Positions 57,240 to 61,710 of a stretch of DNA of 64,000 nucleotides are shown here, in pieces. Origin of the DNA: a virus (Duplodnaviria; Caudoviricetes); IMG/VR virus record IMGVR_UViG_3300028591_000082. One strand, 5' to 3'. A program made the position numbers and the translations under genes. The number at the start of each line of letters is the position of its first letter. Positions within the stretch are counted from its first letter, which is position 1. The notes beneath the pieces were generated by a model. The model had not been told where the DNA came from. It saw only the letters and a list, made by a program, of their open reading frames with translations, and made no database searches.

Positions 57240-57267
57240 TTGACAAAAGAAAAGAAACTGATAAAAT
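57240..57267 (+). promoter_or_regulatory. Sigma70-type promoter for AKR-rSAM operon
   Basis: TTGACA-16-TAAAAT with TGn extension. Confidence 0.75.
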
Positions 57268-57287
57268 AAAAAGAAAAAGGAGTTAAA

Positions 57288-58199
57288 ATGGAACTAAAAG
57301 ATATCTCTAGAATTGGTCTAGGTGGGTGCGAATTACCAGAAAACCAAGAAAGAGCCAATGAACTTATCTCTTATGCATTAAAAAATGGTATAAACTTTTT
57401 TGACCAGGGCTGGGGATATGGTGGGGCCGAACATAAATCAGAAAATATTCTTGGAACTTTCTTGGCAGAAAATCCAAAAATAAGAGAAAATATTATGCTT
57501 TGTGATAAATTACCTATGTATGAAGAACTTTATAATAAGTTTGGATATGATGGTGATAACATAGAAGAAGTTTTTGATAAATTATTTGAAAAGCAGCTTG
57601 AATGTTTAAATACTGATTATCTTGACATTTATATGCTTCATGCGCTTGATGATAATAAGTTTATGACAGAAGATAAATATATTGCTGCCATTAAGTGGAT
57701 GCAGAAAAAAAAGTTTGAAGGAAAAATTAAGCATATAGGCTTTTCTGCGCATATAGATCTTTACAAACTTAATTACTATATTGATTTATTTGAAAAAAAT
57801 TTTGGCAAAGGTATTGTAGATACTGCAATGCTTACATATAATATATTTAGTGGTTCAGATTGGGTAACAGAACAAACTGGAATTAATGTATGGACAAATC
57901 CTGGAAAAAAAGGAATTGAGTTATGTAAAGAGCATGGGATTACAGTTATTTCAATGATGCCTCTTGAAAGCGGAAGAGCTCTTGAAGTATCACATGATAA
58001 AACATTTACAGATTGGTGTTATAAATTTATTTTTGATAATAAGTTTATCACTTCTACTCTTTCTGGCACATCAAATATAAAACATTTACAGCAAATAATA
58101 GATGTATATAACGCAAATCATAATATTTTAAAAAAGCCAGAAGAAAAAACTGTTAGTAAAAAATTTTCAAAGAAAGTAATTAAAAAGGAGAGCAAGTAA
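57288..58199 (+). CDS. Aldo/keto reductase
   Basis: SRIGLG, NFFDQGWGY, SE.ILG, DKL, L.TDYLDIYMLH, GKIKHIGFS; D-Y-K-H tetrad present. Confidence 0.88.
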   Translation: MELKDISRIGLGGCELPENQERANELISYALKNGINFFDQGWGYGGAEHKSENILGTFLAENPKIRENIMLCDKLPMYEELYNKFGYDGDNIEEVFDKLFEKQLECLNTDYLDIYMLHALDDNKFMTEDKYIAAIKWMQKKKFEGKIKHIGFSAHIDLYKLNYYIDLFEKNFGKGIVDTAMLTYNIFSGSDWVTEQTGINVWTNPGKKGIELCKEHGITVISMMPLESGRALEVSHDKTFTDWCYKFIFDNKFITSTLSGTSNIKHLQQIIDVYNANHNILKKPEEKTVSKKFSKKVIKKESK

Positions 58200-59398
58200 T
58201 GGAATTTTCAATAAATTTATTTGGCGGTTGCAAATGTAATGCAATGTGTAGTTATTGTTCTGCTCACCTTATTGAGGAAGAAAATCCAGTTGTAGATCTT
58301 GATGCAATTATTAAAACAATGAAAAGTAATAAAGGTATACAAGAAGGTTTAAAAAGTGGTGATAAATTAAATATTAATTTTTGGGGAGGAGAGCCACTTA
58401 TTCATACAAAGTGGTTTGATCCAATAATTGATAGACTCGAAGATGAATTTGGTGATAAAATAGAAAGCTATTTTATTTCTACAAATGGTATACCTATCGC
58501 AGATAAAAAAGTTGTTGATTGGATTTATGCACTTAATAAAAGAAGAAAAATAGGGATCCAACTTTCGCATGATGGACTTGGTCAATATCATAGAACAAAA
58601 TGGTTTGATCCTCTTTTCTCAGAAAGTACTTGTGATACATTTGTAAAACTTGCAAAAGATGGTATTTTTACTCTTATAAATTGTACAATGTCTTCAAAGA
58701 ATCCATCTATGCTTGCAAATATGTTTTATTTTAATAAATGGTTATTCGATCATGATCTTACAGATAAGGTAGATATTAAATTAAATCATATTAATGATTC
58801 AGATTACTGTTCTGAATTTGACTTTAATGGTGAGGAACTCGATACATATATTCATGAAGCAGAACTTGTGTTTATGGATACATATGCGCTTGTAAAAAAA
58901 TATGGCGAACCAAAAGGTTTCGGAGATCCAAGAGGTGGAAATACACAAAATTTCCCAGCTTGGTGGAGACCATATGCTGGATATTTTAATAATCAGCTTA
59001 TGAGAGATGATTTATATCAGATGCCAGGTGGATGTGGGCAGTTTGCTATAGGAATGAGAGATGAGACTTGGTGTATCAATACAAAAGGTGAATATGTAGC
59101 CTGCCAACTTTGGGATACAAACGATGGTATTCAGAATATGAAACTTGAGATGCCAGCTTATTGTGATGATTGCGAATATAAGATTTATAACGAATGCCAT
59201 CCTTGTCCAAATAATACTTATCCAAAAGAAAAATGTTCTTATCATAAAGCATTTATAAGAATGATTCTTAGAATAAAAGAAATGAGAGCATTATTTGATA
59301 ATGCAATAAAAGATGCAATTAATAATTGTAATTGTAATTGTGGCTGCAATGGCAATGGTAATTGTAATTGTGGAGATGAATGTAATTCATATAGATAA
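58199..59398 (+). CDS. Radical SAM enzyme with SPASM-like domain and Cys-rich tail
   Basis: CNAMCSYC, FWGGEPL, STNG, LSHDG, C...G.YVAC, CDDC.....CHPCP...C; tail NCNCNCGCNGNGNCNCGDEC. Confidence 0.9.
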   Translation: MEFSINLFGGCKCNAMCSYCSAHLIEEENPVVDLDAIIKTMKSNKGIQEGLKSGDKLNINFWGGEPLIHTKWFDPIIDRLEDEFGDKIESYFISTNGIPIADKKVVDWIYALNKRRKIGIQLSHDGLGQYHRTKWFDPLFSESTCDTFVKLAKDGIFTLINCTMSSKNPSMLANMFYFNKWLFDHDLTDKVDIKLNHINDSDYCSEFDFNGEELDTYIHEAELVFMDTYALVKKYGEPKGFGDPRGGNTQNFPAWWRPYAGYFNNQLMRDDLYQMPGGCGQFAIGMRDETWCINTKGEYVACQLWDTNDGIQNMKLEMPAYCDDCEYKIYNECHPCPNNTYPKEKCSYHKAFIRMILRIKEMRALFDNAIKDAINNCNCNCGCNGNGNCNCGDECNSYR

Positions 59399-59491
59399 AT
59401 GATTACTTTAGATAAACAAATAAAGTTTGGAAATTCTTATTTTTCTCAACAAACAAATACAATTAAAGTAGATAATAATAATATAAAATAA
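59399..59491 (+). pseudogene. Leader-only remnant paralogous to N-terminus of 60856..61710
   Basis: MITLDKQIKFGNSYFSQQTNTIKVDNNNIK vs MIILSNKLKFNDS...GTNTIK...IDNNDDI. Confidence 0.5.
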
Positions 59492-59494
59492 GTT

Positions 59495-60325
59495 ATGGAT
59501 GAAAAAAAAATAGAATTTATAAAAAATAAACTTGTTGTCAAGCTTATGACAACAAGTGGTAATATTTTATTTCCACTAAAAAATTTACTTGAAATGCCAT
59601 CTAAAACAGAAGATGGAAAAAATATATATACATTTATATGTTTTGAGTTTCCAAATGATGAGTGTTATTATAGCAAAAAATATGTAAAAAAATGTATGAT
59701 GTCTTGGTCTAAAAAATTTGGATACATAAGAATAATACTTATACCAATAATTCAATGTATTAATATTTCAGAATGGACAAAAAAAACTTATGTTAGAAGA
59801 TGCTATCCTACAGATTCATTAAGAATGCTTTTTATAAGTATGTTTGATAATTGTATATATGTAGATACAGACTGTTTTATTTCCGAAGAGTTTGACGAAA
59901 GCGTATTTGATAAATATGATTGTTTTATTGCTAATAATTGTCCAGGAACAATGACTTGGAATAAACATAAAAATAATAAAAAGTTTATTGAATATTTTGA
60001 CCATTATGAAGAATTAGCAAAAAATATAAAAGATCCAATGGAAAAATATGTTAATGATAATGGAGATTGTACTGTATTTGGAGACTTTGGAAAGAATTTA
60101 ATTACGCCAGTAAATATTACTGGTGTAGATCATTTTTCATTAACATGGTCACTTATGTGGGCTAATAAAAATAAAAAATTTTATTTATCTACATCTAATG
60201 AAAATTGCAAATTTAATTTTTCAAAAGATGCAATGGGTGCTTGGATTGATTATTGTTTTGATAGGGATTATTCAGATTATATAATTCCTACTGATATTGA
60301 TTGTGAATTAATAGGATTTGTATAA
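59495..60325 (+). CDS. DxD glycosyltransferase (GT32/OCH1-like)
   Basis: CMMSW, TDSLRM, IYVDTD match the SW...SD..R...Y.D.D pattern. Confidence 0.7.
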   Translation: MDEKKIEFIKNKLVVKLMTTSGNILFPLKNLLEMPSKTEDGKNIYTFICFEFPNDECYYSKKYVKKCMMSWSKKFGYIRIILIPIIQCINISEWTKKTYVRRCYPTDSLRMLFISMFDNCIYVDTDCFISEEFDESVFDKYDCFIANNCPGTMTWNKHKNNKKFIEYFDHYEELAKNIKDPMEKYVNDNGDCTVFGDFGKNLITPVNITGVDHFSLTWSLMWANKNKKFYLSTSNENCKFNFSKDAMGAWIDYCFDRDYSDYIIPTDIDCELIGFV

Positions 60326-60331
60326 TATAGA

Positions 60332-60430
60332 TTAATATTTGCTGTAACAATTATATATACAAATTTGGTATGCATCTACGCAAGATATATTACATCCAAC
60401 ACATTTATTATCACAAGTTGCGCATCCATA
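60332..60430 (-). pseudogene. Orphan inverted Cys-repeat fragment
   Basis: Minus frame YGCATCDNKCVGCNISCVDAYQICIYNCYSKY-stop with no in-frame ATG. Confidence 0.6.
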
Positions 60431-60442
60431 TAAGATAATTAT

Positions 60443-60859
60443 GTGATAACAGTTGGCAAAACACAAGACAGAATTGGTAATGAAAATAATAGTTCTCTTA
60501 TATTTTTAGGTAATACTAATAATACAACATTTTTAAAGGAAGATGGCGGTCAAGCTTTTTTTGATGAAAATAATATAAGTGATACGATTATTGCTAAAGG
60601 AAAGGTTACAAAAACCACAAATTCTGGCTTTATAAATGACAAAAAATTTTATACTTGTAATGCAAATGCTCAAACTTATTTATGTTTTAGATGCGTTGAT
60701 GAATGTGTGAGTTGTAATAGTTGTTTAAATTGTAATGGATGTCACACCAAATGTAATTCTTGCCAAGGATGTGATGATACATGTTATGGCTGTAATTTAT
60801 GCAATAGTTGTAATGGATGCAATAGTTGTAATTCATATTGGAATGGAGCTGGAAGATGA
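60443..60859 (+). CDS. Cys-repeat protein 1 (putative rSAM substrate)
   Basis: ~70 aa Cys-free N-terminus then ~17 Cys mostly in Cx2C/Cx3C spacing; AAGATAA-4nt-GTG. Confidence 0.75.
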   Translation: MITVGKTQDRIGNENNSSLIFLGNTNNTTFLKEDGGQAFFDENNISDTIIAKGKVTKTTNSGFINDKKFYTCNANAQTYLCFRCVDECVSCNSCLNCNGCHTKCNSCQGCDDTCYGCNLCNSCNGCNSCNSYWNGAGR

Positions 60860-61710
60860 TTATATTATCAAATAAACTAAAATTTAACGACAGTAATACA
60901 GTAACTCATAAAAAAATATTAGTTGGGACTAATACAATTAAATTTGAAAGAGATAATGGTGTTACAGAAATATTAAGAATTGATAATAATGATGATATTT
61001 ATTATAATAATAGTAAACTTTATTATGACTGTAATAATTGCGTAGGTTGTACTAAATGTAATAGTTGTACTACTTGCGATAGTTGTCATGGTTGCATTAG
61101 TGATTGTAGAAATTGTAATGTATGTTATAATAAATGTAATGGCTGTTATAATAATTGCAATGGCTGTAATGGCGGTTGTAATAATTGTCAAAATAGTTGT
61201 AATACATGTACTAGCTGTAATAGATGCACTTCTTGTACTAGTTGTACTAGCTGTAATGGTGGTTGTACCTCTGGATATGGATGTGGCAATTGCGATGATT
61301 CTTGCCAATCATGTACTGGTTGTACAAGTGTTAGAACATATTGTATGGGATGCGTAAGCGGATGTAATAGTTGCACTAGTTGTGCTGGCTGCAACAATGG
61401 TTCTTATTGTCCAAGTAGCTATACTTGTAGTGGAAGTTGTGTAAATACATGTAATGGATGTAATGATGGTTGTACTAGTGGTTGTACAACCGGTTGTACA
61501 TCATGTAATGGTTGTAATAGTAGTTGCCAGAACAGCTGTACTGGATGTCGTGGTTGCGTAAGTGCTTGTACTACAAACTGTACTGGTTGCGATAGTAGAT
61601 GTAATGGTAGTTGCAATGGTTGTACTGGATGTACTTCATGTAATAATTGTGTTAGTACTTGCAATGGATGCAATACTTCGTGTTGGGGACCATGCTGGTT
61701 AAATCATTAG
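60856..61710 (+). CDS. Cys-repeat protein 2 (putative rSAM substrate)
   Basis: ~57 aa Cys-free N-terminus then ~63 Cys (manual count) in Cx2C/Cx3C repeats rich in N/T/S/G; ATGA-coupled start at 60856 with GGAG SD. Confidence 0.8.
   Translation: MIILSNKLKFNDSNTVTHKKILVGTNTIKFERDNGVTEILRIDNNDDIYYNNSKLYYDCNNCVGCTKCNSCTTCDSCHGCISDCRNCNVCYNKCNGCYNNCNGCNGGCNNCQNSCNTCTSCNRCTSCTSCTSCNGGCTSGYGCGNCDDSCQSCTGCTSVRTYCMGCVSGCNSCTSCAGCNNGSYCPSSYTCSGSCVNTCNGCNDGCTSGCTTGCTSCNGCNSSCQNSCTGCRGCVSACTTNCTGCDSRCNGSCNGCTGCTSCNNCVSTCNGCNTSCWGPCWLNH

Follow-up and report, generated by a model that had tools for sequence, protein, structure and literature searches.

Radical SAM enzymes beside cysteine-repeat proteins in gut phages: a putative system for thioether cross-linking of fibre tips

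Radical SAM (rSAM) thioether chemistry has so far been described on small peptides, on QhpC and, since 2026, on one archaeal protein. In the CXXX-repeat (TIGR04114/04115/04117) and CLI_3235/CcpM (TIGR04068) systems, cysteines at regular intervals, with small residues on either side, are encoded beside an rSAM/SPASM enzyme. In the CrpA/CrpC system of Methanococcus voltae, described in a paper that does not mention phages, ranthionine cross-links have been demonstrated, and the auxiliary cluster AuxI of CrpC is essential while AuxII is dispensable (PMC13692751). The auxiliary clusters of CteB are split into AC1, with three cysteines, and AC2, with four (PMC10177961). Asn, Thr and Asp are known as ranthionine acceptors (PMC8326336). 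Among phages, CP220 and CPt10 of Campylobacter encode 11-12 rSAM enzymes, which have been read as metabolic and for which no Cys-repeat substrate has been proposed (PMC2853527). A search of the literature, mostly outside subscription papers, found no relevant paper pairing radical SAM with phage fibres or the virus particle.

The window analysed here is a 64,000-nt stretch of DNA from a jumbo phage of the sheep gut. Within positions 57240-61710 a first-pass annotation had placed five ORFs, encoding an aldo/keto reductase (AKR), an rSAM enzyme, a glycosyltransferase (GT) and two Cys-repeat proteins (Cys1 and Cys2), and all five are found where it placed them, on the + strand (Table 1). Its description of a tightly coupled run holds for AKR-rSAM, which overlap by 1 nt, and for Cys1-Cys2, which overlap by 4 nt, but not for GT, which has gaps of 96 and 117 nt on either side. 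The five-gene list is real but incomplete, as both of these gaps contain broken pieces of Cys genes that had been overlooked. In relatives L033, L233 and L234 a type-A gene begins at the position equivalent to that of the remnant upstream of GT. The remnant downstream is convergent with GT, as in small-phage loci, and is also found in a goat-gut sample. The -35 box of the candidate promoter before AKR-rSAM is identical in relatives L002 and L033. Scattered pieces occur in public contigs from goat and sheep gut samples and one RNA library; they provide no reliable joints and do not prove transcription.

Table 1. Features of the locus, with positions in the 64,000-nt window
Feature	Position	Strand	Remarks
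Candidate sigma-70-type promoter, extended -10, 11/12 match	57240..57267	+	Upstream of AKR-rSAM; consensus match only
Aldo/keto reductase (AKR), 303 aa	57288..58199	+	PF00248; D39/Y44/K74/H118; accessory
Radical SAM/SPASM enzyme (rSAM), 399 aa	58199..59398	+	C13/C17/C20 SAM cluster, GGEP, seven SPASM Cys; core of the system
Remnant of 30 codons, similar to the N-terminal end of type-A Cys genes	59399..59491	+	Sequence similarity; repeat D13
GT-A-fold DxD glycosyltransferase-like protein (GT), 276 aa	59495..60325	+	DxD at 124-126; GT-A neighbours in ESM Atlas; accessory
Remnant of a further Cys-repeat gene (3' end; 44 codons with 9 Cys)	60332..60466	-	Opposite-strand ORF
Cys1 (type B), 138 aa, 17 Cys	60443..60859	+	Putative rSAM substrate; putative fibre part
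Cys2 (type A), 284 aa from the ATG at 60856, 63 Cys	60856..61710	+	Putative rSAM substrate; putative variable fibre tip

It is proposed that the core of this locus is a two-part system, in which a phage rSAM/SPASM enzyme would act on one or more Cys-repeat virion proteins. Its function is probably the radical-SAM thioether cross-linking of fibre tips, a predicted chemistry at a predicted location in the virion. Co-occurrence of rSAM and Cys-repeat genes had been set as a test at first pass, and a Cys-repeat ORF adjoins rSAM in 25 of 28 lineages, defined as rSAM clusters at 70% identity. Among fully flanked lineages the figure is 16 of 17, and the sole well-flanked exception has a Cys gene of 572 aa with 73 Cys some 12 kb from rSAM; no rSAM-family genome with enough sequence is without a Cys-repeat gene. 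Such a gene is found at none of 21 control loci, which were not habitat-matched, and nowhere in positions 1-56000 of the window. The association holds over phage contigs of 35 kb, 220 kb and 385 kb and over rSAM identities down to 23%. As rSAM in related phages nearly always accompanies long Cys-repeat proteins resembling swappable tail-fibre tips, these phages probably use an enzyme to cross-link the fibres with which they recognise hosts. The converse does not follow: most matches to the Cys-repeat DNA pattern were in other frames or in unrelated viruses, and none was in the rSAM family, so that Cys repeats do not imply rSAM.

Single-protein locus searches with NrdD and AKR returned no matches. 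Ralstonia phage RSP15 and Achromobacter phage JWF encode distantly related rSAMs among their tail-module genes; these form an outgroup without long repeats and are excluded from the counts. The one match in a bacterial genome lies in a Candidatus Fimenecus MAG, on a contig of 35 kb that is probably a binned phage, and was not used for host assignment.

The repeats could instead be metal-binding (Zn, Fe or Fe-S) or disulfide scaffolds that carry no covalent modification, with rSAM serving some other purpose or helping to load metal. CxxC/CxxxC arrays are classic metal ligands. CrpA too has been suggested to bind metals (PMC13692751). This would, however, leave unexplained why every sufficiently sequenced rSAM-family genome has a Cys-repeat gene, and why active-site residues covary with repeat type, the rSAMs of the Asp-rich repeat clade having different residues at 161/194/196/197. 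We consider an unmodified scaffold very unlikely.

Thioether cross-linking finds further support in the enzyme itself. The motifs reported at first pass are all present, namely CX3CX2C at C13/17/20, GGEP at residues 63-66 and SPASM cysteines, of which there are seven, and the CX3CX2C cysteines are kept in 68-69 of 69 homologues. The match to PF04055 (E 4e-6) falls slightly below the gathering score. The family is discrete, its members lying almost exclusively on phage contigs. With a model of pLDDT 84.8, in which the Cys-Asn tail is modelled at low confidence, all 50 of the 50 fold matches listed are rSAM enzymes (partial TIM barrel). The top fold match is CteB (E 5e-9), also the best sequence-profile match, with anSME close behind (E 1e-7), at identities of 13-17%. 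The auxiliary cysteines follow the 3+4 layout and order of CteB, with no conserved eighth Cys. By analogy, AuxI would consist of C279/C302/C336 with an open site, and AuxII of C322/C325/C333/C346. C279/C302/C336 are invariant in 69 rSAM sequences and in the L004 enzyme the four AuxII cysteines have been lost together, a pattern that fits both the AC1/AC2 split of CteB and the essential AuxI and dispensable AuxII of CrpC. The earlier assignment to the thioether type is thus borne out in cluster layout and best fold match, from which bond formation is predicted.

The second-ranking fold match raises the question of whether a different chemistry might be performed on the Cys proteins: either an anSME-like conversion of Cys to formylglycine or thioaldehyde followed by reduction by AKR, or a C-alpha epimerisation favouring a beta-helix. 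anSME likewise has no RRE, an aldehyde product would account for the link to AKR, and EpeE epimerases are weakly matched in both sequence and fold searches. The auxiliary cluster of anSME is, however, fully ligated. In the phage family no fourth AuxI Cys is conserved between residues 279 and 302, where 285 is Gly in 68/69 sequences and 292 is Cys in only 15/69; AuxI is accordingly not of the fully Cys-ligated anSME type. Moreover, most lineages have no AKR, and the strict residue bias around Cys described below fits donor/acceptor pairing. Such alternative chemistry is therefore judged unlikely.

rSAM begins 12 residues before the cluster motif and has no RRE, and no leader common to the Cys proteins was found across lineages. 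Its best NCBIfam score is with the PapB model, at 37.7 bits against a cut-off of 340; all others are lower, among them CcpM (29 bits against 500) and QhpD (TIGR03906; 27 against 453). TIGR04463, the CrpC family, is not among its 14 NCBIfam matches, and the three CXXX-repeat models match neither rSAM nor ten Cys proteins.

The two Cys proteins do each have a Cys-free head, as was originally described, followed by 17 Cys in Cys1 and 63 in Cys2. The head of Cys1 is 71 aa long, the first Cys being residue 72, while that of Cys2 is a 58-aa beta-meander, after which comes a core measured at 226 aa. Of the 62 gaps between successive cysteines in Cys2, 58 are of 2 or 3 residues, whereas no ORF in 20 shuffled windows has more than 3 of this length. 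N/T/Q/D is enriched directly after Cys (45/63, p 1e-8) and G/S directly before it (40/62, p 5e-8), a bias that, at the level of sequence, fits donor/acceptor pairing. With a Cys every 3-4 residues, cross-linking is plausible for no more than a subset, and the remainder may bind metal. In the AlphaFold model of Cys2 the core has a pLDDT below 50. Fold searches with the Cys heads returned no known fibre fold (best Z 4.2, no Foldseek match under E 0.1), and a homotrimer prediction for Cys2 residues 1-120 scored 0.01, which is not evidence either way. Sequence searches with Cys2 gave no match in a 5.8-billion sequence set or among GenBank phages.

The Cys genes are located among tail-fibre genes, with neighbours that carry Peptidase_S74, Phage_fiber_2 and Collar domains, and in close relatives one Cys gene terminates in a Gp10_C-type motif. 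In L033 both pairs of Cys genes are preceded by the structural-gene motif AAGTTAA, present at 14 of 58 genes against 0.6 expected. Three Cys genes and two Gp10_C genes of relatives carry a polyG tract that is out of frame by one base. L226 has one expressed Cys gene together with five copies, in both orientations, of a shared recombination block; the copies are start-less, with no upstream Met. The blocks are 128 nt long and 84-99% identical, and are shared by variable 3' cassettes that accompany a constant 5' part; no call of a recombinase gene fell within 10 kb. Three assemblies end inside the block, and L229 has the same order. PolyG tracts are reportedly a feature of variable receptor-binding systems in Campylobacter phages, and the Mu Gin and P1 Cin inversions and the R64 shufflon are variable receptor-binding systems with a constant head and a swappable tail. 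The frameshift tracts, the Gp10_C-type end and the start-less blocks would likewise be signs of variable receptor-binding tips. Cys1 and Cys2 of the window themselves have no AAGTTAA motif, polyG tract or silent cassettes.

These features also bear on whether the Cys proteins might be precursors of the RiPP type, cut to diffusible peptides with antibacterial, signalling or host-modulating roles, rather than virion parts. A Peptidase_C39-like match lies 0.6 kb upstream of the locus (weak, E 0.06), but L033 and L231, both of which carry the rSAM/Cys system, lack the C39-like gene at its customary position, and there is no transporter near the locus. A heterocycloanthracin model matches the Cys proteins weakly (E 2.1). 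They do not, however, have the short leader and core of a RiPP precursor, being 138 and 284 aa long, with homologues of up to 640 aa, and bearing folded heads of coiled-coil or beta-meander type. Given also the tail-module position, the Gp10_C-type fusion and the phase variation shared with Gp10_C genes, release as diffusible peptides appears extremely improbable, and the original suggestion that these are virion appendages rather than small peptides is favoured, although the virion location is one that we infer.

The first-pass annotation had gone further and proposed a dedicated pathway in which rSAM, AKR and GT act in series to cross-link, reduce and glycosylate the Cys proteins. The D-Y-K-H tetrad of AKR is indeed intact and is kept in 14 homologues, and the protein matches PF00248 at E 2.5e-31 (109 bits against a cut-off of 24), with no fused Fe-S domain. 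GT has its DxD, as D124-T-D126, and GT-A fold neighbours in the ESM Atlas, where PF04488 clusters give feature scores of 0.93-0.95 and TM 0.52-0.56. It has no Pfam match above cut-off, although one homologue matches PF04488 at E 0.014; a sequence search recovered only GT itself, and its profile gave only noise against PDB sequences. Glycocin S-glycosyltransferases (SunS-type) are GT2 enzymes. The proposed glycocin type was not upheld for GT, which has no PF00535 match and whose structural neighbours are PF04488/Gb3/NleB.

Distribution speaks against the three-enzyme pathway. AKR is present in 9 of 28 rSAM lineages and the GT family in 6, and they are missing from 8 and 9, respectively, of ten near-complete viral genomes carrying rSAM. 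GT adjoins rSAM in none of the eight close jumbo-phage relatives examined, and in two large genomes its homologue is at least 15 kb away. In the window, GT is bordered by gene debris and, over 384 nt, is 66% identical in nucleotide sequence to the small-phage GT at locus L043; the gene was probably imported. Both enzymes are accessory, optional extras and, as they are absent from most near-complete genomes, the pathway is unsupported as the core of the system. Nevertheless, beyond the window, five independent loci in small phages also combine AKR, rSAM, GT and Cys genes. AKR has remained joined to the rSAM operon throughout the jumbo relatives, including those in which the Cys genes have relocated, and recurs in two distant branches. 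GT2 genes unrelated to the window GT lie directly beside rSAM in L010 and L016, and the Cys2 core offers 58 Ser/Thr. Phage GTs adjacent to tail modules have, however, also been proposed to modify host surfaces (PMC7029224). Action of all three enzymes in series is unlikely.

Returning to thioether cross-linking of fibre tips, rSAM would be expressed from a host-type promoter. A substrate Cys would be bound at the open iron of AuxI; abstraction of hydrogen from a residue close by, most probably the Asn/Thr/Gln/Asp that follows the next Cys (i+4 or i+5), would then give a thioether. Repetition along the chain would produce a rigid, reductant-proof scaffold, which would be useful because disulfides form poorly in the anoxic rumen. 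The stapled A/B pair would form the tips of tail fibres or adhesins, with variable non-Cys inserts, and relatives may switch these tips via polyG slippage and cassette recombination. AKR, tightly linked to rSAM where present, may reduce a carbonyl product or by-product, while GT may add sugars to the Ser/Thr-rich repeat or to some other target at the surface. A broader reading, possible though somewhat doubtful, is that a family of gut phages carries receptor-binding tips on a thioether-stapled Cys-repeat scaffold, in some lineages also reduced and glycosylated, as a diversity-generating adhesin made by radical chemistry. As the enzyme would read only the local Cys register, such tips could be reshuffled by recombination or phase variation and still be matured.

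If cross-linking does occur, phages of anaerobes own a non-disulfide route to rigid fibres, which bears on the stability of host-recognition proteins in reducing guts. An RRE-less enzyme acting along 60-140 cysteines would be useful for protein stapling. The cassettes and polyG tracts also suggest a function for Cys-repeat rSAM substrates, something that is lacking even for CrpA.

The phage system has points in common with several known systems. Like CP220 and CPt10, it belongs to large phages of low-oxygen gut hosts with rSAM genes (PMC2853527). Homopolymer on/off tracts, and cassettes in both orientations with a constant head and a swappable tail, are what the relatives share with the Campylobacter polyG, Gin/Cin and R64 shufflon systems; unlike in Gin/Cin or the shufflon, the parts swapped are Cys-repeat segments in the 128-nt blocks, with no recombinase called nearby. 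Regularly spaced Cys with small flanking residues, adjoining an rSAM/SPASM enzyme, are shared with the CXXX-repeat and CcpM systems, but the phage repeats have a mixed Cx2C/Cx3C register and a phage tail context. QhpD/QhpC of quinohemoprotein amine dehydrogenase resembles it in placing rSAM thioethers on a protein subunit that stays structural, but makes three cross-links in a small enzyme subunit and is RRE-guided. The ranthipeptide pairs CteB/CteA (SCIFF) and PapB/PapA have the same three-Cys AC1 and four-Cys AC2 and a Cys-rich core with Thr/Asn/Asp acceptor candidates, whereas their precursors, which come with a leader and RRE, are some 45 aa long, against 138-640 aa for the phage proteins. 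The nearest precedent is archaeal CrpA/CrpC. That system lies on an archaeal chromosome and has an RRE and a 17-residue repeat, unlike the phage enzyme, which has no RRE and no TIGR04463 match; in both, however, a SPASM rSAM with seven auxiliary cysteines is encoded beside a protein that consists of a folded head followed by Cys repeats at the C-terminus, of about 29 kDa in M. voltae, and the genes are paired as A and B (PMC13692751).

All five open reading frames proposed in the first-pass annotation are genuine. The aldo/keto reductase (AKR) gives a strong Pfam match and its D-Y-K-H tetrad is intact and conserved, while the cluster motif, GGEP and seven SPASM cysteines claimed for the radical SAM/SPASM enzyme (rSAM) are all found. 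The two Cys-repeat proteins contain 17 (Cys1) and 63 (Cys2) cysteines in Cx2C/Cx3C register, far above chance. The third gene has the DxD motif ascribed to it and no match in a Pfam search; the Atlas clusters closest to it in features and structure are those of PF04488, Gb3-synthase and NleB-type GT-A enzymes. This glycosyltransferase (GT) is not of the glycocin type. Two elements had been overlooked. Immediately 3' of rSAM lie 30 codons left over from a Cys2-like start, and GT is followed at once by the minus-strand 3' end of a further Cys gene. GT is thus bracketed by gene debris. Its DNA shares 66% identity with the GT gene on a 37-kb phage contig, and it was probably imported by recombination.

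The window is part of a 222.6-kb contig from a sheep-gut metagenome. Its source, a T4-like jumbo myophage, encodes a T4-type portal, terminase, tail tube, baseplate wedge, prohead protease and anaerobic ribonucleotide reductase, and the AKR-rSAM-GT-Cys run sits within the structural region of the genome. A weak Peptidase_C39-like gene (E 0.06) is conserved in several jumbo relatives, and Cys genes occupy its place in others. In small phages, DUF261 genes lie near the system.

Searched by profile against 1.8 billion representatives, rSAM falls in a discrete family of 61 clusters at E <1e-30, followed by a drop to generic rSAMs. Family loci come from viral and metagenome contigs, with GTDB matches on one contig only. 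None of the curated families fits, the best being PapB (score 38 against a cut-off of 340), and the CXXX-repeat TIGRFAM system was rejected as an identity for want of an HMM match. The predicted model is confident, and its closest fold is CteB, followed by anSME. Among 69 aligned sequences C279, C302 and C336 are invariant; C322, C325, C333 and C346 occur in 68, one lineage having lost all four. An eighth conserved cysteine is absent from the alignment. The auxiliary cysteines follow the order of the three-Cys AC1 and four-Cys AC2 of CteB (PMC10177961), and their pattern agrees with CrpC, in which AuxI is required and AuxII dispensable (PMC13692751). One family rSAM, on the related contig L004, keeps AuxI, lacks all four AuxII cysteines and adjoins proteins of 103 and 96 cysteines. 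It appears to be a natural minimal enzyme. At its C-terminus the window rSAM has a disordered tail of Cys-Asn repeats that varies between homologues and resembles a (Cys-x)n stretch in the fibre gene of Achromobacter phage JWF, a neighbour of a distant rSAM. The L037 rSAM is the sole full-length homologue whose second and third cluster cysteines do not align; misalignment or a miscalled start may account for this.

It had been proposed that rSAM, AKR and GT form a dedicated pathway for maturing Cys-repeat proteins. The association of rSAM with Cys genes stands. Among 28 lineages defined at 70% identity, with flanks as fetched, 25 have a Cys-repeat ORF beside rSAM, including 16 of the 17 flanked by 3 kb or more on each side; the seventeenth has one ~12 kb away, and in the remaining two Cys-negative lineages the contig ends within ~300 nt of rSAM. 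As controls, 21 NrdD-motif viral loci (not habitat-matched) and the first 56 kb of the window contain no Cys-repeat gene. Set beside this association, the alternative that the repeats bind metal and stay unmodified is very unlikely. The other part of the proposal fares less well, however, as AKR flanks rSAM in only 9/28 lineages and the window-type GT family in 6/28; in ten near-complete viral genomes they occur in two and one, respectively. On the rSAM tree, AKR marks a moderately supported clade holding the source phage, plus two distant branches, and unrelated GT2 genes fill the rSAM-adjacent slot in two other lineages. From these counts and the distribution of AKR, the core of the system is rSAM plus Cys protein, and GT comes and goes among lineages. 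An obligatory line of all three enzymes, which shares the rSAM-Cys association and is at odds with the scarcity of AKR and GT, is quite unlikely. AKR is a partner tightly linked to rSAM and confined to certain lineages. Other radical chemistry on the same Cys proteins, such as conversion of Cys to formylglycine that AKR then reduces, is unlikely.

L010 has two family rSAMs, one for each Cys gene, and a Cys-repeat protein with a C-terminal CFI-box-CTERM domain (NF041770, above cut-off). In a 385-kb phage group, a Cys-repeat tail is fused to an N-terminal histidine-phosphatase-like domain (PF00300, E 9e-4), and the AKR-rSAM pair is immediately preceded by three more unrelated rSAM genes and two domains of glycosyltransferase-like type.

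Coordinates of features in the window and on related contigs
Feature	Location	Strand or orientation	Detail
Peptidase_C39-like gene	window:56081-56695	-	
rSAM Cys-Asn tail	window:59320-59395		
AAGTTAA examples	window, upstream of 26907, 27926, 44185, 48074, 56066, 61757		
rSAM without AuxII cysteines	L004:1231-2439		
Phage JWF fibre gene	L008:5640-7091		
Histidine-phosphatase-like fusion	L009:3025-4842		
CFI-box-CTERM Cys-repeat protein	L010:6124-7782	-	
Additional rSAM genes and glycosyltransferase-like domains	L011:942-7041		
PolyG tracts one base out of frame	L033:7261; L233:11262; L234:11262; L226:14691 and 19359		Cys-repeat and Gp10_C genes
Cassette array	L226:11220-14677	both	one Cys gene and five start-less cassettes; shared 128-nt block

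In unrelated phages, Cys genes follow or adjoin genes with Peptidase_S74, Phage_fiber_2 or Collar domains. In the jumbo group they form pairs of a type-A and a type-B gene, in at least four different positions of the structural region, and L033 carries three sets. In L033, L233 and L234 a G7 or G9 tract interrupts one type-A gene, whose frame would be opened by changing the tract by one base; two Gp10_C genes of L226, a 224-kb relative, are likewise out of frame, at G10 tracts. These tracts are likely to be phase-variable on/off switches. The Cys genes of L233 and L234 carry a Gp10_C-type motif at their end. L226 has one type-A gene, called expressed, and start-less block copies that are 84-99% identical, each leading into a different Cys-rich tail. 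The nearest copy (99%) is inverted around the 5' end and promoter of the Cys gene, so that inverting 340 bp would exchange the tail of that gene. Three further assemblies are broken inside the block. The motif AAGTTAA, found within 60 nt upstream of 14 of the 58 window genes against 0.6 expected, precedes mostly structural genes, among them portal, terminase, tail tube and protease, as well as both intact Cys gene pairs of L033. It is a candidate late-promoter element, unlike the T4 late promoter.

Fibre-gene neighbours, mobile pairs, polyG tracts and cassettes are the usual signs of variable host-recognition proteins. The evidence from relatives points to built-in diversification of the system; the window itself shows debris only. 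The fibre neighbours, the Gp10_C-type end and the variation in relatives favour the earlier suggestion that the Cys proteins are virion appendages rather than small peptides, and that they are diffusible RiPPs is extremely unlikely. It is very probable that rSAM acts, in whatever way, on Cys proteins that are virion parts.

The heads of these proteins vary by lineage, from short beta-meanders in the jumbo group to coiled-coil-like in small phages. The repeat grammar is constant, Cys being followed by Asn, Thr, Gln, Asp or Val and preceded by Gly or Ser, which puts a residue of a type known to act as ranthionine acceptor at four or five positions past each cysteine. This spacing is as in PapA (Cx3D) and one CteA assignment, with which another assignment conflicts (PMC8326336). 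In a clade with Asp-rich repeats the enzyme differs at positions 161, 194, 196 and 197, a hint of co-adaptation of enzyme and repeat. On the favoured reading, which is reasonably probable, rSAM would staple the repeats by thioethers and so make the fibre tips rigid, while AKR and GT would be modifiers that some lineages add.

A literature search turned up no paper describing rSAM modification of structural proteins in phages. By analogy, the proposed function resembles that of CrpA/CrpC, CteB/CteA and QhpD/QhpC. However, the phage enzyme has no RiPP recognition element and no family score, and its putative substrates are much longer; the system therefore belongs to none of them. It is conserved and genuine, and would bring the maturation of proteins by radical SAM enzymes to a new setting, that of the phage tail.
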